DNA from: an archaeon GW2011_AR10
GTDB lineage: Archaea; Iainarchaeota; Iainarchaeia; Iainarchaeales; GW2011-AR10
Direction of reading: 5' to 3'
DNA length: 64,000 bases
Assembly: GCA_000830275.1 (NCBI GenBank)
Contig: CP010424.1
Coordinates: 815,311-879,310, forward strand
The notes under the pieces are model-generated. The model saw only the letters and a list, made by a program, of their open reading frames with translations. It was not told the DNA's origin and did not search any database. Shown piece by piece: positions 42,401-64,000 of the stretch; within the stretch, counting starts at the first letter, position 1, and each line of letters starts with the position of its first letter. The position numbers were made by a program, and so were the translations under genes.

Positions 42401-43683
42401 GAGATGGCTTCATCAGAAAAAAACTCAAGTTCTTCATGGAATTCTTTTGCCTCAAGCAGAAGCTGTTTTAGTTTAAGGGTTTTTTCGCCAAGAGAGATTT
42501 GCCCAAGCGCTTCAGCAGTTGAAAGCGCCTGAATCCTTGAGTTGAATTCAAACAGCTTTTTGAGGCCTTCCTCTTTTGCAGTTGAAATTCCTTTTATTGC
42601 ATCCTCCTGTGAAACAATTATTGTTTCCTGGCTTAGCATTGAAATCAGCTCAGCCAAGAAGTCTTCATCAAAGTCACGGTAGGAAGCTGAATCAATCAGC
42701 TCGATTTTTTCCCTGGAATCTTCCAATAGCACTGAAATTTCCTCTTCCAAGGAGTGGTTCCGCTGCATGAGCTCCTGCTTGTGCTTGTGCGTTCGGTTCA
42801 TCAAGTCAAAAAAGTAAAGCGTGGTTGAATCGCCAACTCCGACAAAACCGTTGAGAGAGTTGAGCAGCTCAAATGAGGGGAAATGCTGGAGAGCGCTGAC
42901 TGCATCGCTTAATGTCATGGAGTCAGCGAAGAAATTTGCAACTGAGCTTACCGAACTGCCTATAATCGGAACAAAGAAAGGTTTTTTTGGAACACTAGGA
43001 GAGAGTTTTTTGTCTGCAGCTTTAATTAGGTCAGCAAGAGTTGACTCCTTGAGAATGCGCTGCTCGAATCCAAGAGCTTCGGAGAATTTTTGGAATTCCG
43101 CAGCCCTGCTGAACTGCATTGAAGCAAAGCCCCCTGCGTTTTCCATTTGCGGGTTGGCTAACTGGAGGATGTTGTTGTTTAATGCAGTGAAATCATCGAA
43201 CAGTTTTTCCTCCCTTATTTTTTCAATTTCCTCTCCTTCAAGCTCTGCGCGCTCAAGGAACATCGCGTAATATGCCAAGCCATTCAAGGCGTCAACCTCT
43301 TCAAATGCTCCAACCAAGTGGTGGTTGAGTTCATTGATTTGGCGCGGCAATTCAGAGAGGCTCTGTTGGTTAGAGCAAAGGGCATAAATCTCCTTGAGGT
43401 TGTCTTTTGCGCGGGAAAAGTAAAGCCAGCTTCGCGCAACCCTGTTTTTGTACTCGTGCATTACCTGCTGCACTTCAGCCGAAAACAGATTCTCCTCTGC
43501 ATCAAAACTGCTTTCAACCAGCTCAAAGCATTTCTCCTGGCTTTTACAATAAGGTATTTCGGCGTTAGAGTAGGAAGCCAGCTCCATACAGAGAAGCCTA
43601 TCCCCAGTTGATGCTTCCTGGCTGCAGCCGAACAAAAACAGCAAAAAAACCAGGCCAGAAATCCACTTTGTCGAGGAAGCCAT
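39448..43683 (-). CDS. Giant (1411 aa) predicted lipoprotein/surface protein, largely alpha-helical, with a C-terminal TM anchor.
   Basis: N-terminal signal with lipobox-like LFGC. Long E/L/K/S-rich central region. C-terminal PLLGVIAVVAFFRYKKSRQ. All antisense ORFs in the region are low-complexity. Confidence 0.55.
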   Translation of the reverse strand: MASSTKWISGLVFLLFLFGCSQEASTGDRLLCMELASYSNAEIPYCKSQEKCFELVESSFDAEENLFSAEVQQVMHEYKNRVARSWLYFSRAKDNLKEIYALCSNQQSLSELPRQINELNHHLVGAFEEVDALNGLAYYAMFLERAELEGEEIEKIREEKLFDDFTALNNNILQLANPQMENAGGFASMQFSRAAEFQKFSEALGFEQRILKESTLADLIKAADKKLSPSVPKKPFFVPIIGSSVSSVANFFADSMTLSDAVSALQHFPSFELLNSLNGFVGVGDSTTLYFFDLMNRTHKHKQELMQRNHSLEEEISVLLEDSREKIELIDSASYRDFDEDFLAELISMLSQETIIVSQEDAIKGISTAKEEGLKKLFEFNSRIQALSTAEALGQISLGEKTLKLKQLLLEAKEFHEELEFFSDEAISTLVGLCESRISLVEQQLNKISFGEQENFLLSDLASVTRLRVNRFNSSTRPKEKLQNCKPVFESFASLKAALGNPEVFRLEQANSVKECIDFLERAFSSSESDAFSELQPLFNQLKFLDFSSSPFILSSCENLREKVESSLSELPEAESIAANHSASQRFVELLGLLETAKVNGFSAEELFGLRQRFEGESTFFDGPQLNFSKALGKLKQLNESSFKLRQDSKKTFLESLQNYLQENAGIELFSDSIPKTNEPFSARKKFTLRNNLAEFDGPLQLRFETKDSGSAVFSHATPNVKSVSLSNGVMIVDLNFVPLGLTVFSVDFNSVPATATHVDELLFLDSDKALFEREILIEAPALIPKLLVLSEFNPALTVERESITVIFREKQLQFHFLDGKLAFFAESVAGKEKARVFFNVLKPVEVEFNEPKLDKVDENRFDYTFPFSVKNKLAFELKKAKVLLPFPIKERNIAWLKAFDSTGKSIPVEVISDESVSVTFDELPPNQPKQFFISLEVSNYEQYWTSVLASLKQKVSLINGSNEPGLRAKADLLLGEIEGLEESRDLVNEKSIGAIIGLSQLVASLENEQSGFEQKSQDFLVFERELHQELNQFKGELERLKGFSQKPVFANLFLKDFSQENFTEQMQSSLQKAELHLSKAENLFNEKDLNAAFSELLLARSVIAEKPYAGISGLFLEEKNKLEKLANDFFSKAFSVGLDEGSISTERDELLELSRKAEEAISRQELSVAETLLSTFSEKVFDFNSLLEKSAKEKLNKILERTSAFEELKQLVSEKISLLRSALSSPAIPSNYVAPTTVERLEKLEEKANSEQLLSVSSSISEFMEAINEKEPFKALELSNFFSPELDTAINSLERIEKELAGDLDKLKEDSVSAFNFAAIKYNAAPPNEEARQLIEKAKSELEQSNYVEAINLSSRATGLLSFSNAEQFSVPSAVYPLLGVIAVVAFFRYKKSRQPEKQKLRVEKINFKG

Positions 43684-50437: not shown

Positions 50438-51661
50438 TTACACGCCGTTTTCTAATGCAGCAAGGCCGGGAAGCTTTTTTCCGGCAAGGTATTCGAGGAG
50501 CGCTTTTCCTGCAATGCTTACATGCGTGAAGTCCTGCGGAAGCAAGCCAATCTGGAACAAGGCCCTTTCAGTATCGCCGCCACCAACCAAAGAGAAGCAC
50601 CTGCTGAACGCAATTGTCTCAAGGAGCTTTTTTGTTCCAATCTCAAAGCTTTTCTGCTCGTAAACCCCTAATGGGCCATTGAACACAACAAGCTTTGAAG
50701 CGCGCACTTTCTTTTTGAACAGCTCGGTTGTTCCAACGCCAATGTCAAGGATGGCCTCTTCAACAGGAAGGTCCTTTAGCTTAAGTTCCCTTCTGCCTCC
50801 ATTCGGCTTTGAAGCAACATCAACCGGCAGCACAATCCTTGAACCGTGCTTTTTCAGAAGCGCTGCGGCTTTCGGAAGCAATTTTTTCATTTCTTCTGTT
50901 TCAAACAATGCGTCGCTTTTCCCAAAATTGACGCCTTTTGCCTTCAGGAAAACTTCTCCAAACAATCCGCCAATGCAGACCTCATTGCAGAGCTTTTTTT
51001 CCAGCATTGATTCAACGATTTCAATGCTGTCTGAAACTTTTGCCCCGCCCAAAACAAGGAGTTTTCCGTCTTTTATTTCTTCAAGTTTTTTGAGGCCTTC
51101 AAGCTCTCTTTTCAGCACTGGCCCAACAAAGCTTGGAAGCCTTGCGGCCAACGCAACAACGCTTGCATGGTTTCTGTGGCAAACGCTTAATGCATCCTGA
51201 ACAAAGTAGTCTGCCACTCCTGCCAATGATTTGAATGGCTCAACAGCTACAAAGTCTTTGGCTGTTTTTCCCTTGGCTTCCTCAATATCCAAAAACCTTG
51301 TGTTGTCCAAAACAACAACTGTTCCTTCCCTCATTTCCTTGATTGCCTTTACAAAGTTTTCATCCCATTTAACGAATTTTACATTCCTATCAACAAATTT
51401 TTTAATAAAATCGGCATGCCTTTTAAGCGGGATGAAATCCGCTTCGCCTTTTCTTCCCTGGTGGCTTAAAACAACTACTTTGGCTCCTTCCTCGCAGAGA
51501 GCATAAATTGTTTTAGCGTGCTCTCTCAGCCTTGAGGAAACAACAACGCGGCCTTCAACAATGCTGCTGTTGAGGTCAACCCTTACAACAACAGTTTTTC
51601 CTTTAAGCTCTTGGTCAAAAACGTCTTTGAAGGGCAAAATTTCACCTTGGGATCCTAACAT
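50438..51661 (-). CDS. pgk: Phosphoglycerate kinase.
   Basis: 407 aa. Archaeal PGK N-terminus (...VVVRVDLNSSIVEGR...) and a GGGD-type C-terminus. The ATG follows the track's TTG by one codon. Confidence 0.9.
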   Translation of the reverse strand: MLGSQGEILPFKDVFDQELKGKTVVVRVDLNSSIVEGRVVVSSRLREHAKTIYALCEEGAKVVVLSHQGRKGEADFIPLKRHADFIKKFVDRNVKFVKWDENFVKAIKEMREGTVVVLDNTRFLDIEEAKGKTAKDFVAVEPFKSLAGVADYFVQDALSVCHRNHASVVALAARLPSFVGPVLKRELEGLKKLEEIKDGKLLVLGGAKVSDSIEIVESMLEKKLCNEVCIGGLFGEVFLKAKGVNFGKSDALFETEEMKKLLPKAAALLKKHGSRIVLPVDVASKPNGGRRELKLKDLPVEEAILDIGVGTTELFKKKVRASKLVVFNGPLGVYEQKSFEIGTKKLLETIAFSRCFSLVGGGDTERALFQIGLLPQDFTHVSIAGKALLEYLAGKKLPGLAALENGV

Positions 51662-51663
51662 CA

Positions 51664-51701
51664 ATGGAACAGCAAAAACAATAAATAAGTAACATTTTTG
51701 C
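51664..51701 (-). promoter_or_regulatory. 38-nt promoter module abutting the pgk ATG. Read on the gene strand: CAAAAATGTTACTTATTTATTGTTTTTGCTGTTCCATT.
   Basis: 37 of 38 identical to the module upstream of gap (53811..53848). Contains a TATA-like TTATTTATT. The pgi upstream region shares TTATT...GCTGTTTCCA. Confidence 0.55.
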
Positions 51702-51786
51702 GTGGTTTGCCGTTAGTTTTGGCAAAAGCCGCAATCGCAGAAAAAGCCTGCTAAAGTTATTAAGCTGTTTCCACACAAATTCTTTC

Positions 51787-52542
51787 ATGGCTGAACTGAG
51801 GGAAAAAAGCGGCCTTCCACTGAAACTCGAAGGGAACAAACTTGTTTTCGGGAAACCATTAAAGCAGGTTAAGGCAGAAGCAAGAACATTAGAGCAAATG
51901 AAACCTGTTCTGCTTGAGCCAAACGCAAAGGCTTCGCAAGAACTCTATTTCATGTACCGAAATGTCTGCCTCGAAAAGCACAGGAAAAAAATTGAAGAGA
52001 ATGGGTTGAGGTATGATTTGACCGTAATTCCTCCTGCAACAATCGGAAAAGAATTCATTAAAACAATGGGGCACTTTCACCCAAATGTTCCCAGCACTTC
52101 AGTTGCTTTTCCGGAAGTTTACGAGGTGCTGCACGGAGCAGCGCACTACTTGCTCCAGAAAAAAGATGGAAGCGATGCAGTTGTTTTGAAAGCAGTTACA
52201 GGAGAAAAGGCTTTGATTCCTCCAAGTTACGGTCACATTACAATTAATGCGGGAAAGGAAACATTGGTTATGAGCAACTGGGTTTCAATGAGCTTTTCAT
52301 CAGAGTACGGAGCAATAAAGGAAAAGCATGGAGGAATGTACTTTGAGACAGTTAATGGCTGGGTTAAAAACAATAATTATTCAAGCGTTCCGAAGCTGAG
52401 GGAAGTTAAAGCAAAAAATGTTGAAATTTTTGGCTTGATTAAAAATAAGCCAATGTATTTTTTGGCTGAAGAAATTGAAAAACTTGAGTTCCTAAACAAA
52501 CCGCAGAATTACTTGGAAGTTTTTGAAAAATATTTGAAATGA
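51787..52542 (+). CDS. pgi: Cupin-type phosphoglucose isomerase (cPGI).
   Basis: IGKEFIKTMGHFHP...EVYEVLHGAAHYLLQ and ALIPPSYGHITINAG align with Pyrococcus/Thermococcus cupin PGI (GKEFFFTKGHFHA...EVYVAL.G...LLQ, VPPYWAHRTVN). Confidence 0.65.
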   Translation: MAELREKSGLPLKLEGNKLVFGKPLKQVKAEARTLEQMKPVLLEPNAKASQELYFMYRNVCLEKHRKKIEENGLRYDLTVIPPATIGKEFIKTMGHFHPNVPSTSVAFPEVYEVLHGAAHYLLQKKDGSDAVVLKAVTGEKALIPPSYGHITINAGKETLVMSNWVSMSFSSEYGAIKEKHGGMYFETVNGWVKNNNYSSVPKLREVKAKNVEIFGLIKNKPMYFLAEEIEKLEFLNKPQNYLEVFEKYLK

Positions 52543-52591
52543 CGTCCTCCACTGCCTAAAGGCAGAGGTATCCCAACATTTAATGGACGTC
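52541..52591 (+). repeat. Copy B of the stop-codon-abutting inverted-repeat element (GACGTCCTCCACTGCCTAAAGGCAGAGG...CAACATTTAATGGACGTC).
   Basis: Begins within the TGA of pgi and is followed by CCGTCAACGCAA. See copy A. Confidence 0.5.
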
Positions 52592-52606
52592 ATGAACCCG
52601 TCAACG

Positions 52607-52660
52607 CAACACTTTGTCAAAAAGAAAACAGGTGTTTTTATTTCACTTGACAAAGTGTTG
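52607..52660. terminator. 14-bp perfect inverted repeat CAACACTTTGTCAA-N26-TTGACAAAGTGTTG between the convergent pgi and gap; candidate bidirectional terminator hairpin.
   Basis: Read directly; the loop contains a T-run. Confidence 0.4.
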
Positions 52661-52736
52661 AAAAGATACCGAGACAATAACCGCGACTCAAAAGCCGAAG
52701 TATCTTTTGGGTTGAATGAATTTGAATCCGAGTAAA

Positions 52737-53732
52737 CTACAATTTTTCAATCAGGTCAACAATGCGCTGCGAGTAGCCGAGCTCGTTGTCATACCATGCA
52801 AGCACCTTAACCATGTTGCCGCCAAGCACCATCGTTGACTGCGCGTCAAAAATGCTTGAATGCCTGTTTCCAATGACATCGCTTGAAACAATTGGGTCAT
52901 CAGTGTACTCGAGAATTCCTTTTAGGTAAGTTTCGCTTGCTTTCTTCATTGCAGAATTGACCTGCTCAACTGAAACATTCTTTTCCAGTTCTGCAACGAG
53001 GTCAATCAAGCTCCCGTTTGGAACCGGAACCCTTAAAGCAATTCCTTCAACTTTTCCTTTCAGCTCTGGAATCACTTTTGCTGCTGCCTTGCTTGCGCCA
53101 GTGGAAGTTGGAATAATGTTTAGTGCAGCGGCCCTTGCCCTCCGCAAATCCTTGTGCGAACCATCAAGAACTCTCTGGTCATTTGTGTAGCCGTGCACTG
53201 TTGTCATGAAAGCGCGCTTTACTTTGAAGTTGTCGTTGAGGACGCGCAGCACTGGCATCAAGCAGTTTGTGGTGCAGGAAGCGCTGTCAATTATTTCCTC
53301 ATTTTTCTTTAAAACCTCATCATTGACGCCGAGCACAACAGATGAAACTTGTTCGTCGCCTTTTGCTGGAGCGGAAATCACCACTCTTTTTGCTCCTGCC
53401 TTAATGTGTGCTAATGCGTCCTCTTTTTTCCTCAGCTCGCCGGAGCTTTCAACCAATACATCAATTTTGAGCTGCTTCCAGGGAAGCTTTTCAGGGACAT
53501 CCCTTTCATTGAAAACCTTTATTTCTTTTCCATTAATAACAATTGCATCCTTTTTTGCTTTCACTGTTCCAGGAAATCTGCCGTGAACTGAATCGTACTT
53601 GAACAGCAAAGCAGAGCCTTCCGCGTCCCTTACGCCGTTAATTGCAACCCACTCGATTTTTTTGCTGTCAATTCCTGCGCGGAGCACAAGTCTTCCAATT
53701 CTGCCAAAACCGTTAATTGCAACCCTCACCAT
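52737..53732 (-). CDS. gap: Glyceraldehyde-3-phosphate dehydrogenase, type I (bacterial/eukaryotic-type GapA).
   Basis: VAINGFGRIGR Rossmann motif and catalytic SCTTNCL. Start moved to the ATG (MVRVAINGF) with GGAGGT 7 nt upstream. The track's N-terminal extension is promoter sequence. Confidence 0.9.
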   Translation of the reverse strand: MVRVAINGFGRIGRLVLRAGIDSKKIEWVAINGVRDAEGSALLFKYDSVHGRFPGTVKAKKDAIVINGKEIKVFNERDVPEKLPWKQLKIDVLVESSGELRKKEDALAHIKAGAKRVVISAPAKGDEQVSSVVLGVNDEVLKKNEEIIDSASCTTNCLMPVLRVLNDNFKVKRAFMTTVHGYTNDQRVLDGSHKDLRRARAAALNIIPTSTGASKAAAKVIPELKGKVEGIALRVPVPNGSLIDLVAELEKNVSVEQVNSAMKKASETYLKGILEYTDDPIVSSDVIGNRHSSIFDAQSTMVLGGNMVKVLAWYDNELGYSQRIVDLIEKL

Positions 53733-53810
53733 GCCAAAACCTCCAATAAGCCTTTTAGGAAAAGGCTCGCGAAAAAGTGGCTTCGCCAAAGCCTTGAATC
53801 CTGCTAATTG

Positions 53811-53848
53811 AATGGAACAGCAAAAACAATAAATAGGTAACATTTTTG
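53811..53848 (-). promoter_or_regulatory. Second copy of the 38-nt glycolytic promoter module, about 75 nt upstream of the gap ATG.
   Basis: AATGGAACAGCAAAAACAATAAATAGGTAACATTTTTG on the plus strand; 37 of 38 identical to the pgk copy. Confidence 0.55.
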
Positions 53849-53880: not shown

Positions 53881-56613
53881 CTACCTTACCCTGATTGCTT
53901 TCCTGCGCCTTGACTGCTTGTAGAAGTAGTCTGAAATCAGGATGGAGGCAATTTCAAGCACAACGAATGCAAGAGCAGCATTGAAGCCGAAGAACCTGTC
54001 AACCTGGAATGGCAGAATGAAGAGCAATATTGCAATGCCGATTCTTGTAGCGTCCTCAATTTGTTTCTCGCGCGAGCTCTTCGGCCTTCGCGGGAACAAA
54101 AGAATGCTTTTTGTGTGAGCAAACGCTGCAGCAAGCAGGGAGATAACTACAAGAATCAAGAACAGGACGGGTTGCCTTATTATTGAGCCGAACAATAGTT
54201 CAGTGCCTGCACCGGCGCCAACAAACACTGATTCAAAGAAGCCGGTTGCAAGGAAGCTTGCCTCAAAAACAGTGAAGCCCTTCCTTGTGACAATCAGCTT
54301 ATGGCTCCCTGCTACAAGTGCCCTAAACTCCCCTCTGCCTAAATCGCTTAATTCAATTCTCTGCCTTTCACCGTTTGGAAGCTCTACCTCAACTATTATG
54401 TCGGAGGGAATCTGGCCGTCCTCTGTTTGAACGATTATTGGGAGGGTTTCCCCAACAGCAATTATTTCCTTGAAGTCAGGCAACACGATTCTTGCAACTG
54501 AAAAAGCCCCCTGGAATGGGTCAAACTCTTCCTTGGAAACATCCACAAGGTAAGCGCCGGGCTCTATTAAATCAAAAATTATGAAGCCGCCTGCATTAGT
54601 GTCAAATTCTCTTACCGTTCCGGAAGGGAATGTAAGTGAAACATTTGCGTTTGCAACAGGCTTTCCGAGCCTGTCGAAAACTCTCAGGTGCCTTGTGTCG
54701 CCTAGGAAGTCAGCATCATTGTAATTGAATATCACGTTGAACTGGTTAAAGCCTATTACAAGGCTCTGCAATGCCTCATTGTTTAACTCGTTTAGTTCCG
54801 GCACAGAATTGGATGGGTCAATTACGAGCTTCAATTCGTTTACTCCGAAGAAATCGTTTGTGTCCTCAACAGAAAAATAGATTTCAGCTGAGCCATCGGT
54901 TTCAAGCCCTGCAATTGTTACTGAGTCAACCAGCTGGTTGTTCAAAAGCAGGACAACATCAAAAGAGGCGGCATTGGAAACGCCTGCATTCTTTACTGTT
55001 GCACTGACATTCAAGGGCTTTCCGACAACAGAAAACGAGGGAATGTTTTTTTGAGTGAAAATCAACTCTGAAAGAAGCACGCAGTCCTCGTCAATCAAAT
55101 CGTCATTGTCGTCATCCTTGAAATTACCGCAGATTTCAACGCACTTTATTCTGTGCGGTGGAATAACAGCATACCACGCATCAGTATATACCCTTGAACT
55201 GTTTCCTAAACCATCATAAGCATAAGTGTTTGAGTAAAAGAAAACCTCTCCTGAAACAGGGCCAATTGTGCCGGTAAACTTTTCCCCGCTCTTTGACAGG
55301 AAAACAGTTTCATCTTTAGAGGTTCTTCCAAAGCGGTAAAACACTTTAGCTGTTTCAACTGTAGCTCCCTCAACAGGGGTTAGCTCAACATCAATAAAGA
55401 AAGCAGAATAATTGTCATTAGGCCTTGCCTCAAACTCCACGCTTTCAATCAGCTTAACTTTTTGGCTGGGAAGCGGGGGCCTGAATGCCTCGTCCTCGTC
55501 AACAGGCAAAAAGAACTGCAGGTTAACAATGCTGCCGTCAATGTCCATAAAATTGTAGTACACTGTGTCTGCATCAGAAAATGAAGCATTCAGGGTTTGC
55601 CCCTGCTTTACATTGGTGAAACTGAACTGCTGTGAGGAAGAGCCCCTTACAACAAAAACGTCAACAAACCCAATGCTGTCATCATTGTCATACACGCTTG
55701 TTGCAACAAGCTGGCCGCTCTGGTTAACAATTTTAATCCATGAAAACTGGCTGCTTCCCTGCAGCAGAATCACTGGTGCATTTCCCTCATTTGCCAAATT
55801 AATTGTTTCGCTAATTTCTTCGTTGATTATTGCTGAATCAAATGATGCTGCTTCAAACTGGATTGTTGGAGTCTCTGTCACAGTTGATGGGGCAGCTGAA
55901 GCAGGAACCCCGATTAAGGCGCAGGCTGCAACATCAGACGCAATTAAATGGTAAACTGTTGAGCCAAAGCCGGAGGTAACTTTTTTCCCAGAAGAATTGT
56001 AAACTGTTATGCCACTGTAAGGGTAAATTTTTCCGGTGAACGGCCCGGCTGTTGCAGTGAAAGTGTCGCCGTTTTTAATCATCGGGACACTTGTTCTTGT
56101 TCCGCTTTTAGTGAAACTGTAAAAAAACACTGCCCTTTCAGCTGAAAAAGCGGAATTAATGTCAGCTGAAACATCAAGATAAAAGCTTCTGTTCCCCTCG
56201 GCAAGCCTTGGAGTGATTGTTTTGCCCAAAAACACTTTCGGCTTTGGCTGCACTGGAGTAGGCTCTTCCGGGGGCTGCGGGTTCAGAACAAAAATGAAGT
56301 ACTGCAGGTTAACAATTGCCCCGTCATTGTCCATAAAATTGTAGTAAATGCTTGAATCAGAAGAAAATGCAACATCAAACACTGTTCCTTCTTCAACTCC
56401 TGAAAACTGGTAACGGTTAACTGAGCCGGAAGAAGCAATAAAAATGTCCACCAAACCAATGCTGCCGTCATCATCAAACACGTTTGTGGCCACAAGTTCT
56501 GGGCCCTGAACTTCAATCTGAATCTGTGAAAATTCTTGTGCATGCGCTGCACTAGGCAAAACCAAGGCCAAAAGCACTGCAATCAAAGCATGTTTTATTG
56601 ATTCTCTGTCCAT
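53881..56613 (-). CDS. Large secreted/membrane surface protein (about 910 aa) with CARDB-like domains, a Cys-x-DDDNDDLIDEDC acidic metal-binding-like motif and a C-terminal multi-TM region.
   Basis: Start moved to the ATG (MDRESIKHALIAVLLALVLPSAAHA, a signal peptide). Overlaps the stop of the upstream giant gene by 19 nt. Several hydrophobic helices in the C-terminal 120 aa. Confidence 0.6.
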   Translation of the reverse strand: MDRESIKHALIAVLLALVLPSAAHAQEFSQIQIEVQGPELVATNVFDDDGSIGLVDIFIASSGSVNRYQFSGVEEGTVFDVAFSSDSSIYYNFMDNDGAIVNLQYFIFVLNPQPPEEPTPVQPKPKVFLGKTITPRLAEGNRSFYLDVSADINSAFSAERAVFFYSFTKSGTRTSVPMIKNGDTFTATAGPFTGKIYPYSGITVYNSSGKKVTSGFGSTVYHLIASDVAACALIGVPASAAPSTVTETPTIQFEAASFDSAIINEEISETINLANEGNAPVILLQGSSQFSWIKIVNQSGQLVATSVYDNDDSIGFVDVFVVRGSSSQQFSFTNVKQGQTLNASFSDADTVYYNFMDIDGSIVNLQFFLPVDEDEAFRPPLPSQKVKLIESVEFEARPNDNYSAFFIDVELTPVEGATVETAKVFYRFGRTSKDETVFLSKSGEKFTGTIGPVSGEVFFYSNTYAYDGLGNSSRVYTDAWYAVIPPHRIKCVEICGNFKDDDNDDLIDEDCVLLSELIFTQKNIPSFSVVGKPLNVSATVKNAGVSNAASFDVVLLLNNQLVDSVTIAGLETDGSAEIYFSVEDTNDFFGVNELKLVIDPSNSVPELNELNNEALQSLVIGFNQFNVIFNYNDADFLGDTRHLRVFDRLGKPVANANVSLTFPSGTVREFDTNAGGFIIFDLIEPGAYLVDVSKEEFDPFQGAFSVARIVLPDFKEIIAVGETLPIIVQTEDGQIPSDIIVEVELPNGERQRIELSDLGRGEFRALVAGSHKLIVTRKGFTVFEASFLATGFFESVFVGAGAGTELLFGSIIRQPVLFLILVVISLLAAAFAHTKSILLFPRRPKSSREKQIEDATRIGIAILLFILPFQVDRFFGFNAALAFVVLEIASILISDYFYKQSRRRKAIRVR

Positions 56614-59600
56614 ATCGTCCACCAAATCAAGCTCAAGGAATTTATTCTCTCGTAATGCATTCTCCTGATAAAGCTTGGCTCAGTCCACCACTTAACTCCG
56701 ACATCGTTTACTTGCCCGTAAGCAGGAACAAGGCCCCTTTCAATGACATCAAATTCATGCACTGAGTAAAGCGAATTGTTCCTGTCAATCCTGAGGTTGT
56801 TAGTTGAAAGGCTCGACAAATTGGATGAAAGCTTGCTCGTTAACAGCACTTCATCTTCCCTGAACTCGCTTAAAGAAATCAGCTGCAGCACTGATAGGTT
56901 GGCTCCGGCAACAGAATACTTGTAAGTGTTGTTTTGCCCTGATGCTGTTGAATTCCAGATGCTAACCCACAATGGCTCGTTCTGCAGGAACTCATCGTAA
57001 GAGTAAAACAGTGCCGGATCAACAACATAAGTTATTGAAAGAATTTCATTGTTGGATTCGTTGCTTTCAGGCACTTCATCAAGCGGGTCAACTACAACCC
57101 TTACTTCATTTTCCCCTTCAAATGCTGCTGAGTCAACGGAGAAGATAAATGCAGCGTTGGAGTCAATTGCCAGCGCTTCAAACTGCCCGGAATCAACCAG
57201 TTCATTGTTGAAATAAAGCGATAATGTGAATGGGGTTGAAGCGTTATCTCCCGGGTTTTTCACCATTCCTGAAACCATAATGTTTTCGCCGCTGAAAACA
57301 GATGACGGAATGTCCACATTTTCCAGTGTTAGGTCAGACAAAAGCAGCTCGATGAATATTTCTTCAACGTTGTCTGCCTCATTCACTTCACTAATGTCTC
57401 CCTCCGAGTCAACGAATACATAGAAGTTTGTTGCCTCCTGGAAATAAGCAGCAATTCCTTCCTCTTTCTCTGCAAGCCTGAATACTGTGCCTATTGGCGC
57501 CTCCCAAACAAACTGCAGGGTTAGCTCGCCGTCCTTGGAAACCGCATCAATAAAGGTTACTGCAACACCGTTCCCTGAAAGCGCGTCCTTGAAGAACTCA
57601 ACGTAGAAGTCCTCTGACTTTGCGTAATCTGACTTAACTATAACAGTGAACTCAACGCTGATCAAGTCCGTTCCAACGTAGGTTGGAGAGCCAATTTCAA
57701 TTGATTTAATGTAAAGGTTCGGCAGGTTGCAGCCCTCATCAACCAGGCCATCGCCGTCATCGTCAGCATTGTTGTTGCAGATTTCTGGGCCGGCAAAGTA
57801 AATTGAAACCTGCGTTTCGTTGTTGGATTCATTGCTTTCAGCAACCGCGCCTGAATCATCAGCTGTTAACACAAACTCTTTTGTCTGATACAGCCAGCCA
57901 CTCATTTGAGGATTGGAAGAATTGAAAGCAATGTTGAATACAAGGCTTACCGCGTCTCCTGCACCCAAACCGTTAACTGTCTTTGATTCAGAGTACTTGT
58001 CTGGCCCTGTTCCCTTCTCCTTCAACTTAACAGTAAAAGAAGCATCAGTTTCGCCGGCATTATTGTAAACCGTTACAACAACTAAGCCAGTTGAACCATC
58101 ATTAATTACTGAGGAAGCACTGGCCGAAATCGTTAAATCTGGAACTGACTCGCATGGAATGCTGCAGCATGCATCCGAATCAGTTGCACTCAAAAGCGTG
58201 CCCGAGCAGGTTTCAAAGGCACTGCAAATGAAACCATTCTGCTCTGCACAGGTCTGGATAGGCAAGGAACAGTCAGCCGGGCAAGTGGAAGTGGTTTCAC
58301 TTCCAGTGCACTGGCCGTCGCCGCAAACATCCGCTGGCGGGCAAACACCGCAGTCAGCGGAGCAAGTTGAACAGTCTTCTCCTGTTTCACATGAGGCATT
58401 TCCGCAGACAGGCCCTGCAGGAGCACAGTCGCTTGGACAGTTGTTTTTGTTCTCTCCCGCCTCACAGGAACCATTGCCGCAGACAGGGCCACCGCCGCCT
58501 CCTGTCTTCCTGAAGGTAACGCTGGCTTCAGAGCCATTGTAGTCAAGGTTGTCTGTTGCCCAAACATAAATTGTGTGGTTGCCGTTGCTGTAGCCGCTAA
58601 ACACGTAGCTTGTGTTGGTTGAATTGTTTATTGTTGCGCCGGAATCAAGCCTTAACCAGTATGTTTTCACTCCTGAGCCAGTGCCATCGCTTCCAGTGTA
58701 CTGCACTGTAATGCTTGAAGATGTTGTGTCAGAACCACTTGTTGGGGAAGAAATTGTTACGGTTGGAGCAGTTGAATCATAAACTGTTGAGTCATTAACA
58801 GTGCTTGATTCGTTGCCTTCAGAGTCCTTCACTTTTACATAAACTGTTTTTGTTCCATCGCCGGTTGAGCATCCAGCTCCTGTTGTAATGTCAAAGCTCG
58901 AGTAGGTTGAAACAAAGGCAATCCAGCTGCCAAATGTTGAATTGTTGCAGCTGAAAGCCATGTGAGAGGCATCACTTCCAGCGGAAATTGTAAGGGTTGG
59001 AGTTGAATCATTTGTGTAGCCAGAAGTATCAGTAATTGCAATTGAACTTAAGCTCGGGGCATTAGTGTCTTGGCCTAACCCCCACTGCGACAAGTGGTTC
59101 AAGTCAGCTGTAACCTTTAGAGTGGTCAAGTTAACGGTTGACGGATACTTCACCCACTCTCCAGCATTAGTATCATAGAAGTACATTGAAACCTTGTTTA
59201 TGTCGGAAGCAGTGCAGCCATACAACGGAGCACTCCCTAAAGCATTATAGCAGTTCAGGGCAGCAACATTAATGTCAAGGGTCAAACTTGGCTTTGTTGC
59301 ACCGAACGAAGTGCTGCTCGGCAATTCAATGTCATAAGCTTCAAGCATTGTTCCGCGGGTGAAAGGCCTGTAGTTTGTGTTTGCATCAATTGTGATATTG
59401 TTGTCTGCTCCAAACAATCCTGAAGGAAAAGTGAAGTTAAAGTCTCCCCAAGCACTGGATATCTGCTGGTTAATTCCTCTTCCATCAGTTGGCACCTTGA
59501 AAGGGCTCTGCGTGTCAACAAAGCACTGAATGGCAGTGGAATCGGCATAGTTTCCTAAAGCATCATAGGTTCTAACCTTGTAGAAGTAAACACCATCAGT

Positions 59601-62600
59601 TGAGCCAGAGTCAGCTCCAAACTTGCTGCTGCCAGTCAAGTAGTCGGAGCTCGGGGCATCAACGCAGCCGTTAATGCACACAAAGCTGGAGCCGAACTTC
59701 TGCTTGCAGAACTGGTTTTCCAAAGTGTCTGGGCAGTTCTCTCCCGGAGAGCAGATGCTGTCACCGCAAACAATAGTTACAGAGGTTACCTGCCTGCAAC
59801 CTGTTTGGCTTGTTTCCGGGTTGCCGCAAACATAGTTGTTTCCATAGTTGCCGTTGCCTGAAGTGCTTGATGCGCGGCAAGCAGCATTGTCATAAGAGCA
59901 AAACTCGCCTTGCCCGCAAAAATTGTCACCGCATTTCAAGCAATCATTCTTGCAGCTGGTGTTGTCTTCGGTTGACTCACAAACCCCGTCATTGTCACAA
60001 GTGCTTCCCACAACACCATCGCAGTCCTGCGGGCAAGTAGAAACTGTTTCGGTTCCACTGCACCAGCCGTCAACATAGCAGCCGGAACCGCTTCCGCTTG
60101 CAAAGCTCTGGCAGTCAGCGGAACAGCTCTGCGGGTTTTCATTGTAATTGCACGTGCCATTGCTGTTGCAGACACAGTCAATGCCTGCTGCCTCAAACCA
60201 CTCGCAGAACCCATCACTTGTTGGAATGTTTGCTTGAGAACAATCAGCAGCACAATTGGTGGAGGTTTCACCAAAATTGCATATTCCGTTGCCGCAAATG
60301 CTGGAGTCCGGGCTTGATGAGCCGCCCTGAGCATAGTAGCCTTCTGTTTTCTGCACGCAGCCATTAACGCACCAGTAAGCTCCTGAAGTGTTATACCTTG
60401 CATCGCAGGCAGAGTCATCAGCTGCACAGTTTTCTCCAACAGAGCAAACACTGTCACCGCAGGTAATTGAAACAGAGCCGCTTGTTGCCTGGCAGCCGTT
60501 GCTGCAGCTGTAACCTTTAGGGCAGTCAAAGCTGTCTTCCGGGCAGAACTCTCCTTGAGTGCACCAGCCATCACCACAATTGCCGGTGAAACCATAGCTT
60601 GAATAAAAGCTGGTTGTGTCGAAGGCATAGCTTGTGTAAGAATAGTTAAAGTAGTTGTCATCAGCATTATTCTGTTCGTTCAAAGTATTGTAGTTTGTTC
60701 CATCGACTGAAACCATTATCTCGTAGTGGTGTAATCCAGCATTGCTTGAGGGAGCAGTCCACTGCAAGTCAATGTTGGTGCCGTCAACAACGCTTGGGCA
60801 GGCACTTAGGGTAACAGGCTGAATTGAAGCTTCCTGCAAAACATACTCTGTTTTTGGAATTTCATTGTTGCCGGCTCCGGAAACAGAGTAGAATTGTATG
60901 GCAAAGTTTCCGTCCTTCGAGAAAAGGAAGTTAACATCAAACACGTTGAAGTCAACCCCTGCTGTGCCGGTGTAAAAGCCGTCAGTTGCATAAGTTGTTG
61001 GGTTGAATGAAATTGTGCTTGCTGGATTGGAGTCAAGCCTGAACCTTGTTGCACCTGAAGGACAACCGCTTCCTCCAGGAGGAGAGTAGTGAATCTTGAA
61101 ATCATACAATGACATTGTGTAGAAAGAGCCACTCGCAGTTGACCTGTCCTGGAAGCGCACATTGAACTGGATGTACTGGTTTTCTGTGCCTATGGGGGAG
61201 TTAAATGAAGTGGTTTCGCTTGACCAAGAACCCCAACTGCTTCCATTGCTTGAAGTCCTGTATTTCACGAAAATGTCTTTGCCCTCAAAAGGATACTTCT
61301 GCGCATAATAATCGTAGCCGCTCCAGTTGACGGATGAGCCAGCATTGACAGTAATTGTAAGGTTAGCGTCCCTAATTCCGCTCTTCAATTGCACATTGCT
61401 GTTTATTACTTCAAGCTGGGCGGAATTGAAGTTGATTGTAACGCCTGATGGAGGGGTTGTTGTCCAGTGCGCCTGAGTGTAAATCAACACACTAGTGAAG
61501 GCTGATGTGCCTGTGCTGCAGGTAAAGTGAACGTTTGCATCCGTTTTCTGCCAGAACTTGTTGATATCGGATTGAGTGAAAGGAGCTACATTCTCGTTAA
61601 TGTAAGTGTCCGAAACAACCCCTGAGTAGAACTCTCCATCATATGCAACGCATTTAACTGTAGCAGTTCCTTCAGTGTTGAGGCCCTGCCCAACACAGTT
61701 GGCTCCAGCATAACCAGCAGAAGAAATTCCGGTTCGAGAACAAAATGATGCAGCGCCTGCAATCTGGGCTCCACTATCAAATGGAGGAGTGTCAGAGCAG
61801 TAAAAGTTCAGGTTGTCATTGTCTGGATCAGTTAAGCCTGCTGCAGTAACCTTAATGTCTTTATTGAGGCTTGCTGAGGAAACATTCAGGTCAATTGAAG
61901 TAATTGAAGGAGCAGCATTCCAGCTTGTTGTGAAGGAAACATCCAAATTGTTTGCGGAAGAGTTGCCGTTGCCTACCCCATCAACACAGGAAACATACCT
62001 GTTGATTGCCTGGCCGTTTGTGCTGATTCCTGTGAAGTCGCACCTCCACTGGCTTGTTCCGGAATTGAAAGAGCAGGCAGTGCCTGTTCCTACTGAATAA
62101 TTCACATCAGTGGCATACCACCTGCAAGCTGAAACAGTTGAGCCTGCATCTGAAGCAGTAAACAAGAGGTTTGCATCACTGTCGTTGATTGTGTCAGCGT
62201 AAGGAGCAGTTGTGTCGCCTTCAATGCTGACAATGCTGAAAGAGCCGGGAGCAGTTGCATCACAGGTGAAGGAACCGCTAATGTAGTTTGCTGCAGCAGC
62301 CTCATTCAAGGAATCGAAGAGGAAAACATACCAGTTATGGCTGTCATTGTCACCTGCTTTGGAGTACTGGCAGGTTGGGTTGCTGCTTGAAGAAGTGTCA
62401 GAACATAAGCCGTTGCCGACAGAGCAGCCGGAAGAGGTTGCATCAGTTGCCTTGCAGGCATAAAACTTTAGGGTTTGCGAGTCAGCATCGGAGGCAGTGC
62501 TAGTGAACTTAATGTCTGCCGGGCATTTGATTGTGCCGGAAACGTTTTCATCAGCTGCTGTCAGGACAGGCAAGCGGTTAATGTTAATTGTTTTGCTAGC

Positions 62601-64000
62601 AGTGCTCTGCACGTTTCCAGCAGCATCGGTTGAGCTATAGCGCAGGTAGTTAACTCCCCTGTTTGAATCAGAAAAGGTCACTTGGCCCCCATTGTCTATT
62701 ACAGTTGACGGGGTGCAGTTGTTAGCAGTATAAGAGCAGAAGCTTGTTGTAATTGCAGCAGCAGCCGAAACATTGTCCGCTTCTGTGATTGTAACAGAAT
62801 AGTTTGGAGCAGCAATTGCAGTGCTGGAATCATCACTTGTTGTTGGAACAGTCCAGTCAACACCGAAAGAAACTGATTGAGTGGAAGTTGCATTCCCAAG
62901 CGAGTCAGCGCAAGCATAATAGCGCGTGTAAGAAGCAGCCTGAGTCAATGCACCGAAGTCACAGGTTGCTGCCTGAGAGGTTGTCGTACAGTTACTGGCA
63001 AGGGAAGCGTAAGCAACATTTGCAGTATCCCATTTGCAGGTTACCCCTGCTTCCCCATTATTAATAACCAAATCCGTTCCAGAATCATTTGTTGAATCCC
63101 AGTAAGCAGCGGCAGTGTCACCATTCAAGTCAGCAATGCTTATGTCAGGGCCGGAGGTGTCAACAGTGAAACTGAAAGCAGTTCCATAGCTTCCAACATT
63201 GCCAACTGAATCAGTTGCCTTCATTCTCCAGTAAATTGTTGTTCCATTAGAGAAATTGGTGGTATACTCCGTTCCACCATAATCACAGTCAGCGCCAACA
63301 TCCAAACCATTCAAATCTGAGAACTGGCTCAAAAAATTAGAAGCATCATCAACCTGCAAATAACAATTGCTCACAGTTTCACTCGGATTAGCAGTGAAAT
63401 CAGGGTCAACATCATTGGTTGAGGAAGCATCCGCAGGGGTTTGCAAGGTTACAGTTGGAGCAGTTGAATCTGTTGTATAAGAGCCTGTCTTGTAGTTGCC
63501 GGGGGCAGGCTCGTTCAAGGAATTGAAAATGTAAGCATACCAGTTATGCGTGGTGTCATCGCTTTCAGCAGTCCAGCCGCAGCTTGGATTGGAAGCAGAG
63601 CCGGTTGAAGAGCAATAAGTGTCTGGTGCGCCGCCATCACAATCTGTTCCGGAAACACCAGTGCTCTTGCAGATAACAAGTTTGAGTGTTTGGGTTGCGT
63701 CAGCATCTGAAGCAACAGTGGTAATGGTAATGCTTGTTCCGCCCTTAATTGTTGGGTTGGAGTTGCCGATGTCGGCTGTTGCAGAAGTAAAGCCCGGCAA
63801 CTGGTTGATGTTAATGGTTTTGCTGGCAGTGCTTTGAGTGTTGCCGGCAGCATCAACCGAATAATAACGCAAATAATTTAAGCCCCTGTTGCTTGCATCA
63901 AATGAAGCAGTGCCGCCATTGTCAATTGAGGTTGTGGGAGTGCAGCTGTTGTTGGTGTCCTTGCAGTAATAAGAGGTTGTGTCAGTTGAATTTGAAACAT
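56595..64000 (-). CDS. Giant cysteine-repeat surface/adhesin-like protein, 2468 aa or more, N-terminus beyond the window. It has tandem about 400-aa modules, more than nine C-G-[DN]-G-x-C...G-E...C...D-C mini-modules and CARDB-like domains. No C-terminal anchor.
   Basis: The track's start at 63872 is a TTG inside a repeated module (...NYLRYSSTDAAGNVQSTASKTININRLP recurs at about aa 400). The frame stays open to position 64000. Thr/Ser/Asn/Gly-rich. Confidence 0.7.
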   Translation of the reverse strand, partial: VSNSTDTTSYYCKDTNNSCTPTTSIDNGGTASFDASNRGLNYLRYYSVDAAGNTQSTASKTININQLPGFTSATADIGNSNPTIKGGTSITITTVASDADATQTLKLVICKSTGVSGTDCDGGAPDTYCSSTGSASNPSCGWTAESDDTTHNWYAYIFNSLNEPAPGNYKTGSYTTDSTAPTVTLQTPADASSTNDVDPDFTANPSETVSNCYLQVDDASNFLSQFSDLNGLDVGADCDYGGTEYTTNFSNGTTIYWRMKATDSVGNVGSYGTAFSFTVDTSGPDISIADLNGDTAAAYWDSTNDSGTDLVINNGEAGVTCKWDTANVAYASLASNCTTTSQAATCDFGALTQAASYTRYYACADSLGNATSTQSVSFGVDWTVPTTSDDSSTAIAAPNYSVTITEADNVSAAAAITTSFCSYTANNCTPSTVIDNGGQVTFSDSNRGVNYLRYSSTDAAGNVQSTASKTININRLPVLTAADENVSGTIKCPADIKFTSTASDADSQTLKFYACKATDATSSGCSVGNGLCSDTSSSSNPTCQYSKAGDNDSHNWYVFLFDSLNEAAAANYISGSFTCDATAPGSFSIVSIEGDTTAPYADTINDSDANLLFTASDAGSTVSACRWYATDVNYSVGTGTACSFNSGTSQWRCDFTGISTNGQAINRYVSCVDGVGNGNSSANNLDVSFTTSWNAAPSITSIDLNVSSASLNKDIKVTAAGLTDPDNDNLNFYCSDTPPFDSGAQIAGAASFCSRTGISSAGYAGANCVGQGLNTEGTATVKCVAYDGEFYSGVVSDTYINENVAPFTQSDINKFWQKTDANVHFTCSTGTSAFTSVLIYTQAHWTTTPPSGVTINFNSAQLEVINSNVQLKSGIRDANLTITVNAGSSVNWSGYDYYAQKYPFEGKDIFVKYRTSSNGSSWGSWSSETTSFNSPIGTENQYIQFNVRFQDRSTASGSFYTMSLYDFKIHYSPPGGSGCPSGATRFRLDSNPASTISFNPTTYATDGFYTGTAGVDFNVFDVNFLFSKDGNFAIQFYSVSGAGNNEIPKTEYVLQEASIQPVTLSACPSVVDGTNIDLQWTAPSSNAGLHHYEIMVSVDGTNYNTLNEQNNADDNYFNYSYTSYAFDTTSFYSSYGFTGNCGDGWCTQGEFCPEDSFDCPKGYSCSNGCQATSGSVSITCGDSVCSVGENCAADDSACDARYNTSGAYWCVNGCVQKTEGYYAQGGSSSPDSSICGNGICNFGETSTNCAADCSQANIPTSDGFCEWFEAAGIDCVCNSNGTCNYNENPQSCSADCQSFASGSGSGCYVDGWCSGTETVSTCPQDCDGVVGSTCDNDGVCESTEDNTSCKNDCLKCGDNFCGQGEFCSYDNAACRASSTSGNGNYGNNYVCGNPETSQTGCRQVTSVTIVCGDSICSPGENCPDTLENQFCKQKFGSSFVCINGCVDAPSSDYLTGSSKFGADSGSTDGVYFYKVRTYDALGNYADSTAIQCFVDTQSPFKVPTDGRGINQQISSAWGDFNFTFPSGLFGADNNITIDANTNYRPFTRGTMLEAYDIELPSSTSFGATKPSLTLDINVAALNCYNALGSAPLYGCTASDINKVSMYFYDTNAGEWVKYPSTVNLTTLKVTADLNHLSQWGLGQDTNAPSLSSIAITDTSGYTNDSTPTLTISAGSDASHMAFSCNNSTFGSWIAFVSTYSSFDITTGAGCSTGDGTKTVYVKVKDSEGNESSTVNDSTVYDSTAPTVTISSPTSGSDTTSSSITVQYTGSDGTGSGVKTYWLRLDSGATINNSTNTSYVFSGYSNGNHTIYVWATDNLDYNGSEASVTFRKTGGGGGPVCGNGSCEAGENKNNCPSDCAPAGPVCGNASCETGEDCSTCSADCGVCPPADVCGDGQCTGSETTSTCPADCSLPIQTCAEQNGFICSAFETCSGTLLSATDSDACCSIPCESVPDLTISASASSVINDGSTGLVVVTVYNNAGETDASFTVKLKEKGTGPDKYSESKTVNGLGAGDAVSLVFNIAFNSSNPQMSGWLYQTKEFVLTADDSGAVAESNESNNETQVSIYFAGPEICNNNADDDGDGLVDEGCNLPNLYIKSIEIGSPTYVGTDLISVEFTVIVKSDYAKSEDFYVEFFKDALSGNGVAVTFIDAVSKDGELTLQFVWEAPIGTVFRLAEKEEGIAAYFQEATNFYVFVDSEGDISEVNEADNVEEIFIELLLSDLTLENVDIPSSVFSGENIMVSGMVKNPGDNASTPFTLSLYFNNELVDSGQFEALAIDSNAAFIFSVDSAAFEGENEVRVVVDPLDEVPESNESNNEILSITYVVDPALFYSYDEFLQNEPLWVSIWNSTASGQNNTYKYSVAGANLSVLQLISLSEFREDEVLLTSKLSSNLSSLSTNNLRIDRNNSLYSVHEFDVIERGLVPAYGQVNDVGVKWWTEPSFIRRMHYERINSLSLIWWTIWTENQ

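Follow-up and report, generated by a model that had tools for sequence, protein, structure and literature searches.

How does a small-celled archaeon hold on its surface a protein of several thousand residues whose C-terminal end carries no membrane anchor? The question is raised by the last 10 kb of a 64,000-nt stretch of DNA from GW2011_AR10 (AR10; assembly GCA_000830275.1, contig CP010424.1, positions 815,311 to 879,310), hereafter the window, in which two overlapping genes lie on the minus strand: one for a giant protein that runs off the window edge, followed by one for a 910-aa protein, p2. An initial annotation, made from the letters alone, had proposed a small-celled archaeal host, and the DNA does belong to a groundwater DPANN archaeon of the Diapherotrites (Ca. 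Iainarchaeum). We give a probability of about one half to the reading in which the pair forms a two-gene cell-surface module, with a lectin-tipped giant fibre docked on p2 as its membrane stalk. We hold the extracellular, non-enzymatic nature of the fibre with much more confidence than the role of p2 as its anchor.

A giant protein with no anchor in the part read, and a membrane-bound neighbour

The open reading frame (ORF) list has two entries here, 56595..63872 (minus strand, 2425 aa, from a TTG) and 53881..56625 (minus strand, 914 aa). On translation of the minus strand, the first of these frames was found to be free of stops from 56595 to 63998 (2,467 aa). Given that the frame stays open up to the window edge, the TTG at 63872 is internal and the gene exceeds the window, in agreement with the initial annotation, which had put the N-terminus outside the window and the size above 2468 aa. 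Beyond position 64000 no nearby stop appears: contig Ga0209211_10000144 (JGI, L001), identical to the window along 20,120 nt, shows no stop in this frame through 10,019 nt, or 3,338 aa. Gene calls on independent assemblies give the giant 5,464 aa (JGI, ENA) or 5,436 aa (NCBI); by the 5,464-aa call, its N-terminus lies ~9 kb past the window edge, and the window holds the last 45% of its residues. In what follows, residues 1-2467 of the giant are those inside the window, and the part "read" is the C-terminal 3,338 aa.

No frameshift that would split the gene was seen in the assemblies compared (L001-L004, L006). The 28-aa gap in size between the JGI/ENA and NCBI calls corresponds to an 84-nt indel at the border of a 1233-nt tandem repeat. 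All mismatches between otherwise identical assemblies concentrate at this border (window ~63107-63264; L001 3350-3507), which suggests either that repeat copies recombined or that the assembly is ambiguous there. A diversity-generating or hypervariable region was considered and rejected, since mismatches confined to the repeat border do not suggest targeted mutagenesis.

The features of the pair, all on the minus strand, are as follows.

56595 to 64000, minus strand: giant surface protein, C-terminal 2,467 aa plus stop (open frame, identical contig, outside gene calls).
61899 to 63998, minus strand: giant residues 1-700, tandem 411-aa units, each of four predicted immunoglobulin (Ig)-like beta-sandwiches with conserved cysteines (self-BLAST, DNA repeat, AlphaFold2 (AF2), Foldseek).
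60612 to 61898, minus strand: residues 701-1129, beta-rich region with a weak Pfam fn3 match (E 0.09, residues 1071-1109), otherwise without a curated domain.
59664 to 60578, minus strand: residues 1141-1445, cysteine cluster A, four 6-Cys modules CGDxxCxxGExCxxDxxxC...C.NGC interleaved with four 4-Cys modules (sequence reading, hidden Markov model (HMM)).
58512 to 59663, minus strand: residues 1446-1829, Ig-like region of Big_13 / OmpL47 type (Pfam Big_13, E 0.0026, residues 1656-1734).
58152 to 58481, minus strand: residues 1840-1949, cysteine cluster B, three tandem 4-Cys modules VCG[ND]GxCExGExxxxCxxDC, then a Cys-rich tail.
57789 to 58130, minus strand: residues ~1957-2070, CARDB-type domain 1, ending AVAESNESNNE (Pfam CARDB in two stretches; borders read from the sequence).
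57729 to 57779, minus strand: residues 2074-2090, acidic loop CNNNADDDGDGLVDEGC, probably disulfide-closed (sub-cutoff PF11617 and NF033662 matches).
57045 to 57716, minus strand: degenerate CARDB-like domain (residues ~2095-2215) and CARDB domain 3 (2221-2318, ending VDPLDEVPESNESNNE) (Pfam CARDB).
56598 to 57044, minus strand: residues 2319-2467, conserved C-terminal domain with the motif WW.EPSF[IM][RK]RMHYER..SL..WW (four-orthologue alignment).
56595 to 56623, minus strand: gene junction, with GGTGG at 56623-56619, the ATG of p2 at 56613-56611 and the TAA of the giant at 56597-56595.
53881 to 56613, minus strand: p2, 910 aa (AJF60453.1, QT03_C0001G0967) (ORF, Pfam, hydropathy).
53884 to 54228, minus strand: membrane region of p2, with transmembrane (TM) helix TM1, a basic loop, a TM2/TM3 hairpin with LPFQxDRxFG and the tail KQSRRRKAIRVR (hydropathy, four-orthologue invariants).

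The composition of the giant is that of an extracellular protein. Its part in the window is rich in Ser, Thr, Gly, Asn and Asp and holds 100 cysteines. Some two thirds of these belong to the mini-module clusters, and the others are mainly conserved cysteines of the Ig-like units; the pI of the 3,338 aa read is 4.05. By hydropathy no TM segment is found in these last 3,338 aa. No ATPase family of Pfam or NCBIfam is matched in the scanned part of the giant, and neither a glycoside hydrolase nor any other catalytic domain is found in the AR10 3,338 aa or in the scanned marine orthologue described below. The initial annotation's pairing of a secreted giant with a membrane-embedded partner thus stands for p2, which has a signal peptide and several TM helices, and stands for the giant in the part read, which is of extracellular type and anchorless.

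The C-terminal end of the giant is the part most relevant to how it is held. The CARDB-like domains noticed at the outset were confirmed by Pfam (PF07705, cutoff 22.7 bits) in the giant (71.8 bits, E 6.1e-20, best stretch 2221-2318) as well as in p2 (55.2 bits, E 9e-15), and CARDB domain 3 of the giant also matches the cell-surface protein of PDB entry 2l0d (E 0.005). The acidic loop is hit by PF11617 Cu-binding_MopE (E 9.5e-4, 19.8 bits, under the cutoff of 27) and by NF033662 acid_disulf_rpt (E 3.7e-5, 23.4 bits, under the cutoff of 41). Its resemblance to calcium-binding loops of the DxDxDG type suggests that it may bind calcium. The last 150 aa match no Pfam or NCBIfam family, have no TM segment and are 39-44% identical to the C-termini encoded upstream of p2 homologues; we regard them as a candidate docking domain. 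Sorting of the giant by an archaeosortase (PGF-CTERM) was rejected, since the protein ends in a soluble domain.

In keeping with the initial annotation of a secreted protein with a multi-TM anchor, p2 has an N-terminal signal-like segment and ends in three hydrophobic helices. Its predicted order is a signal peptide (1-26), a duplicated two-domain beta module (27-235 and 286-490; 35% identity, E 5e-37), an acidic loop (495-511, CGNFKDDDNDDLIDEDC), a CARDB domain (~517-614), CarboxypepD_reg-like beta-sandwiches (~620-795) and three TM helices with a basic tail (796-910), which amounts to about eight beta domains. An AF2 model built from three sequences is all-beta and then helical, with low confidence (predicted local distance difference test (pLDDT) 51.7). 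The acidic motif that p2 had been said to share with the giant is indeed common to both: the two loops are 62% identical, and the CARDB domain of p2 is 43% identical to the last one of the giant. The best-conserved parts of p2 among its orthologues are the acidic loop (64-77% identity) and the TM region (48-56%); in the latter, four orthologues share invariant polar residues, among them LPFQxDR and a Glu of the last helix. A sortase-type or PGF-CTERM signal on p2 was rejected as well, given the three hydrophobic helices, a basic tail of 12 residues and the lack of a PGF motif.

The two genes overlap by 19 nt out of frame, exactly as the initial annotation had it and as the positions of the p2 ATG and the giant's TAA require. 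A Shine-Dalgarno (SD)-like GGTGG lies 5 nt ahead of the p2 ATG and is encoded by Trp-Trp codons of the giant. Since p2 starts inside the last codons of the giant, behind this GGTGG, it is probably translated in step with the giant. At four loci (AR10, L007, L009, L010) GGTG[GA] stands 3-5 nt ahead of the p2 ATG, with overlaps of 19, 25, 22 and 4 nt; in three lineages the TGGTGG for the conserved Trp-Trp doubles as the SD-like GGTGG, while the marine metagenome-assembled genome (MAG) has a separate GGTGA.

A survey of synteny in related genomes shows that the pair recurs in four lineages of Iainarchaeia besides AR10 (P0095, P0096, marine ARS1427 and JAZDDZ01). For both close homologues of p2, the upstream gene overlaps by 25 and 22 nt and has a C-terminus 39-44% identical to that of the giant. 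The p2 family has few members: two homologues share 38-40% identity with p2, the marine orthologue shares 34%, and GTDB representative genomes add another two. Among the matches found the family is limited to Iainarchaeia; p2 itself has exact matches on 15 contigs. Three further loci are informative.

Marine MAG (L010): the upstream gene encodes a giant of 6,319 aa; overlap with p2 of 4 nt.
JAZDDZ01 (L012): the upstream giant has at least 3,316 aa, is 38% identical over 1,245 aa and holds four 6-Cys (type 2) and two 4-Cys (type 1) modules; overlap of 4 nt (ATGA), behind a G-rich stretch.
JACRDJ01 (L013 8971-12643): a distant p2-like gene of 887 aa (29% identity); the upstream gene is phosphoribosyl pyrophosphate (PRPP)-synthase-like, with no giant and no overlap.

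The p2-like protein of JACRDJ01 has the layout of p2 and a C-terminal tail ending in ASIRVQ. An apparent 382-aa upstream gene in L008 was rejected as an artefact of scaffold N runs; the frame goes on and is homologous to the giant. Beside the pair, the genes for GAPDH, cupin-type GPI, PGK, DFP (CoaBC) and NFACT are syntenic (window 50438-53843; L007, L010, L012) in genomes from groundwater to marine. A T-run, TTATTTTTTT, follows the stop of p2 ahead of the GAPDH gene. Directly upstream of the giant, the marine MAG encodes a polytopic membrane protein of 531 aa (L010 6305-7900); it has no Pfam match on record and the look of a multi-TM glycosyltransferase.

Building blocks of the giant

The far end of the giant is known from three sources: the content of its N-terminal 2,125 aa rests on the gene call, a Pfam record and the marine orthologue. 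For the 5,464-aa AR10 product, a Laminin_G_3 (PF13385) match is on record (precomputed, E<=1e-5), while a Pfam scan of the C-terminal 3,338 aa has none. Hence, the Laminin_G_3 domains should lie within the N-terminal 2,125 aa. The marine orthologue MAG18222.1 (6,319 aa, Iainarchaeum MAG ARS1427) is 31-42% identical to the AR10 giant over long stretches. It opens with a signal-like hydrophobic segment and has no further TM segment; its lectin-type domains comprise six Laminin_G_3 stretches (E 1.5e-111), a CBM_4_9 domain (E 7e-12) and a pentaxin-like match, and it shares with the AR10 giant the Ig units, the cysteine clusters, the CARDB domains and the C-terminal domain. From this orthologue we infer that the AR10 giant carries an N-terminal signal peptide too.

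The middle of the giant is built from long repeats. The repeat marks LRYYSVDAAGNTQSTASKTININQLP and LRYSSTDAAGNVQSTASKTININRLP stand ~410 aa apart, and the repeated module of about 400 aa reported initially is borne out twice over: residues 1-120 and 410-525 are 53% identical by self-BLAST, and the DNA has a tandem period of 1233 nt (411 aa) with up to 90% identity over 300 nt. The 411-aa unit is 35-47% identical to ~80 DPANN proteins, some of them named 'LamG domain-containing protein', and at least 250 aa of it are matched in 77 proteins. It accounts for most of the giant's 88 database homologues, ~75 of which align to this unit alone; the taxa are mainly Pacearchaeota, Nanoarchaeota and Diapherotrites, with a few Patescibacteria or Nitrospirae. 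Residues 701-1129, in contrast, are aligned by the closest orthologues alone. Against 39 members the unit aligns from end to end at 35-41% identity, with 35 invariant columns that include conserved Cys, Trp and Asp. Homology of its Ig units makes the AR10 giant part of a broad DPANN family.

An AF2 model of the unit (40-sequence alignment) is all-beta; its mean pLDDT is 79.5, and most of its first 310 positions exceed 85. When the model was compared with the PDB by Foldseek, the matches were, in order, the GhpA rods (E 5e-9, TM-score 0.43-0.50), Ig/FN3 strings of animal receptors and bacterial S-layer proteins, the last including Deinococcus HPI and SbsB. In the model, then, the 411-aa unit takes the form of a generic Ig-like rod that carries conserved cysteines. 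Further along, NCBIfam barrel_OmpL47 matches the giant in three stretches (E 1.1e-10, best 1761-1829).

It should also be noted that DPANN proteins of ~1,700 aa (P0056, P0009, P0011 and others) form a coherent family with the shared four-Ig unit. Unlike the AR10 giant, they carry at the C-terminus a conserved TM segment of their own, followed by a coiled-coil tail in the cytoplasm, and one of them, P0033, has a weak CdvA-like match.

The two cysteine clusters are made of two kinds of mini-module. Type 1 has 4 Cys in ~19 aa, CG[ND]GxC[ED]xGExxxxCPxDC, with three tandem copies in cluster B and four more degenerate ones in cluster A; its consensus was derived from 250 modules, and the usual linkers are 3-6 residues long. 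Type 2 has 6 Cys in ~29-45 aa, CGDGxCxxGExCPxDxxxC...G..C..GC, with four copies in cluster A. All module sequences quoted by the initial annotation for both clusters are present; its account of cluster A needs correction in that the cluster lies at 59664-60578, not at 59.2-60.3 kb, and holds about eight copies of two kinds rather than six. In every module read the Cys count is even (4 or 6). A variant of type 1 with 6 Cys has exactly one extra pair, at fixed positions. These counts fit with both module types being disulfide-stapled spacers, as we infer from them.

To what extent the 4-Cys pattern exceeds chance can be judged from an HMM built from 90 modules of other proteins. It scores 98.5 bits on the giant, with four domains at 23-34 bits and three or four weaker ones, and has no other match in the six-frame translation of the window; the three modules of cluster B score 29.0, 20.4 and 23.1 bits. 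The pattern is thus well beyond chance.

The modules had been described as a family that could not be named, which is half right. At E<=10, Pfam and NCBIfam place no family on cluster A and none on cluster B save a chance-level DUF1480 (E 0.09), so that no curated family, EGF, disintegrin and S-layer families included, is matched; PDB gives no sequence match to the modules with single-sequence or 90-module profile queries; canonical type 1 arrays of other proteins have no Pfam or NCBIfam model either; and no paper was found in the literature for module strings such as CGNGVCE. The 4-Cys type is nevertheless not peculiar to the giant and recurs in other secreted proteins. A word-indexed search with cluster B returned five small secreted or lipoprotein-like proteins that are largely tandem copies. 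A phmmer search with cluster A against 1.84 billion representatives gave 50 weak matches (best 70.9 bits), a count that is no measure of module frequency because the giant's own modules are divergent; nearly all of the 50 proteins hold type 1 arrays, with up to 12 modules per protein.

In other proteins, type 1 arrays stand beside trypsin, Calx-beta, PD40, PHB-depolymerase-type esterase and CARDB domains. Named bearers come from Deltaproteobacteria, 'bacterium', 'archaeon' and Diapherotrites MAGs, all annotated as hypothetical, and the small ones (P0089-P0093, P0134, P0139; 144-237 aa) consist almost wholly of tandem 4-Cys modules without a curated family. Type 2 modules were found in the Diapherotrites giants and in two further proteins, one of them from a Diapherotrites MAG; from these matches the 6-Cys module appears nearly confined to these giants.

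How the pair may work, and what else it could be

On the reading that we prefer, the giant and p2 would both be exported by Sec, with p2 remaining in the membrane. The giant would be an acidic, Ser/Thr/Asn-rich secreted protein of 5,464 aa, composed of ~50 small units of beta-sandwich or disulfide-knotted type: lectin domains of the LamG/ConA-like kind in the distal N-terminal part, a rod of Ig-like domains in tandem 411-aa units in the middle, the two 4-Cys/6-Cys clusters as rigid disulfide-stapled spacers, and, at the C-terminus, three CARDB-type domains, the acidic motif that resembles a calcium loop and the 150-aa end domain without a membrane anchor. This anchorless end would dock non-covalently on the ectodomain of p2. 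At 3-4 nm for each of ~50 domains, the lectin-like end may reach an estimated ~100-200 nm from a cell that is a few hundred nm across, and the LamG/CBM domains there would bind glycans of other cells or particles.

Several points weigh against this proposal. Because the whole neighbourhood is syntenic, the conserved adjacency of the two genes is by itself weak evidence of functional coupling and may reflect general synteny. Short gene overlaps are common in compact genomes. To judge from JACRDJ01, the p2 family can occur unlinked from the giant, and the N-terminal signal of the giant could, if uncleaved, serve as an anchor that holds it without p2. A core part of the envelope would more typically keep a stable place beside housekeeping genes than would a variable, host-specific adhesin. 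Finally, N-glycosylation sequons in the giant are not above the level of shuffled sequence (69 versus 61 +/- 7).

On a different account, the pair would belong to the core envelope or to an S-layer. Iainarchaeia would then have p2 as their major anchored envelope protein and the giant as a canopy or sheath on it, by analogy with SlaA on SlaB in Sulfolobales. The layout of p2 is classic for an archaeal S-layer protein, and its small family, limited to Iainarchaeia, agrees with this, as does the housekeeping neighbourhood that the pair keeps from groundwater to marine genomes; the p2-like gene that stands alone in JACRDJ01 would be expected if p2 had an envelope role of its own, and the Ig unit has structural matches to, among others, S-layer proteins (Deinococcus HPI, SbsB). 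However, a chain of 5,464 aa with LamG/CBM lectin domains exceeds lattice S-layer proteins by far and has the look of a binding fibre, Pfam and NCBIfam give no match to an S-layer family, and the lack of sequon enrichment speaks against an S-layer as well. We consider this account unlikely.

The giant and p2 could also be two independent surface proteins that are merely adjacent, the giant being self-anchored at its N-terminus or released, p2 being separate, and the overlap being a product of genome compaction. The synteny of the whole block takes strength from the argument of adjacency, JACRDJ01 has a p2-like gene with no giant upstream, and the N-terminus of the AR10 giant lies outside the 3,338 aa read. 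Set against these is the persistence of the overlap and the SD-like motif in four further lineages, despite protein identities of 34-40%. Moreover, the giant and p2 share a homologous segment of acidic loop and CARDB domain, and the anchorless C-terminal domain is among the best-conserved parts of the giant. The probability that we assign to mere adjacency is low.

A bolder version of the docked fibre would make the pair a lineage-wide cell-contact apparatus of Iainarchaeia. Here p2, as a purpose-built three-helix stalk, would hold a lectin-tipped line of ~100-200 nm; its unusually conserved polar membrane bundle, with LPFQxDRxFGFNA and the invariant Glu in TM3, would pass engagement of the fibre on to the cell, in the manner of a signal or a port, beyond the part of a passive anchor, and the apparatus would draw its parts from two disulfide mini-domain families without a curated model or structure. 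We hold this to be quite improbable.

Least probable of all is a feeding scaffold, whose LamG and CBM4_9-type domains would bind environmental glycans instead of a host and keep the cell on its substrate: the CBM_4_9 domain (E 7e-12) and six LamG stretches of the marine orthologue suit it, and Diapherotrites of the AR10 type are said, by Youssef et al. and Castelle et al. in 2015, to be fairly capable metabolically and possibly free-living, yet the scanned parts hold no glycoside hydrolase or other catalytic domain, and the idea differs from the docked fibre in its ligand only, a matter on which sequence is silent. What PMC8561730 notes on AR10 is limited to biosynthetic capacities without counterpart in other DPANN reference genomes.

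Elsewhere, the window also encodes the large subunit of archaeal PolD. A further ORF of 1,411 aa (39448-43683, minus strand) has no Pfam or NCBIfam match. With an N-terminal signal that includes a lipobox-like FLFGCSQ, a Glu/Lys/Leu-rich, coiled-coil-like body and a C-terminal TM segment with a basic tail, it is probably a further envelope protein of AR10.

Significance and comparison with known systems

The genes of the pair have been public as 'hypothetical protein' since 2015. If docking is true, Iainarchaeia display a half-megadalton fibre by means of a separate, co-translated stalk and not of an anchor within the fibre itself. The conserved gene pair would then offer a concrete target for cryo-electron tomography and proteomics of DPANN cells, whose attachment machinery is mostly unknown. 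Probably more useful than the finding of a fibre would be the curation of both mini-modules, which would annotate stretches that are now blank here and probably in other proteins.

Among smaller elements, the Myxococcus cysteine-rich repeat (TIGR02232, CGNGxxExGEeCDDGN) shares its opening CG[ND]G..E.GE with the 4-Cys module; it differs in its Cys spacing and from the module's C-terminal CPxDC, and neither TIGR02232 nor any other NCBIfam repeat matches the clusters of the giant (E<=10) or the canonical arrays of other proteins (E<=1). PF11617 and NF033662 both align, below their cutoffs, to the C-x-N-x-DDD-G/N-D-x-L-[VI]-DE-x-C loops of the giant and p2; the difference is that each protein has one loop with one Cys pair and no repeat array. 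Both proteins have clear members of PF07705 CARDB, the family of the Methanosarcina cell-surface protein 2l0d. These domains make up a small part of the giant and of p2, and nothing function-specific follows from them.

The best structural matches to the four-domain unit are those to GhpA, the grappling hook of Aureispira (PDB 9fls, 9flp, 9flw, 9flx and 9fly; Foldseek E 5e-9 to 2e-7, TM-score 0.41-0.50). GhpA and the AR10 giant are both giant cell-surface rods of Ig-like domains, and the rods of GhpA catch other cells. GhpA, however, is bacterial and 13-15% identical in sequence, no hook domain is identified in the AR10 giant, and the match is one of the generic Ig-like fold.

In Sulfolobales, SlaA (~1,400 aa) forms the lattice, while the smaller SlaB, with a signal peptide, beta-sandwiches and a C-terminal anchor, holds SlaA. 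The AR10 pair resembles this system in being an operon of a large anchorless outer protein and an anchored partner, which is an analogy of operon logic only: the AR10 giant is four times larger and has lectin-like domains, and the gene order and the domain families differ.

The closest parallels come from DPANN archaea themselves. Giant Ig/LamG surface proteins of Nanohaloarchaeota have been analysed in detail (PMC10266531), and LamG/PKD surface proteins and giant 'SPEARE' proteins are reported from the same group (PMC10266531, PMC6642349). The nanohaloarchaeal giants are described as membrane-bound, with C-terminal TM segments followed by a cytosolic VirB4/TraG-like ATPase domain (PMC10266531). 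Compared by description, the AR10 giant differs from SPEARE-type giants in that it has neither a C-terminal TM segment nor an ATPase domain and is accompanied by a separate anchored protein instead. In Diapherotrites, large extracellular proteins of Ca. Forterrea have been proposed for cell-cell interaction (PMC5905446). Like the AR10 giant, the Diapherotrites and other DPANN giants exceed 5,000 aa, are acidic and secreted, combine Ig-like with LamG-type domains, belong to small-genome DPANN and have been proposed to act in cell-cell contact. Giant LamG/Ig-like surface proteins of DPANN, including Diapherotrites, are thus already described, and what is modestly new here is the uncurated mini-module families and the conserved cassette of giant and stalk.

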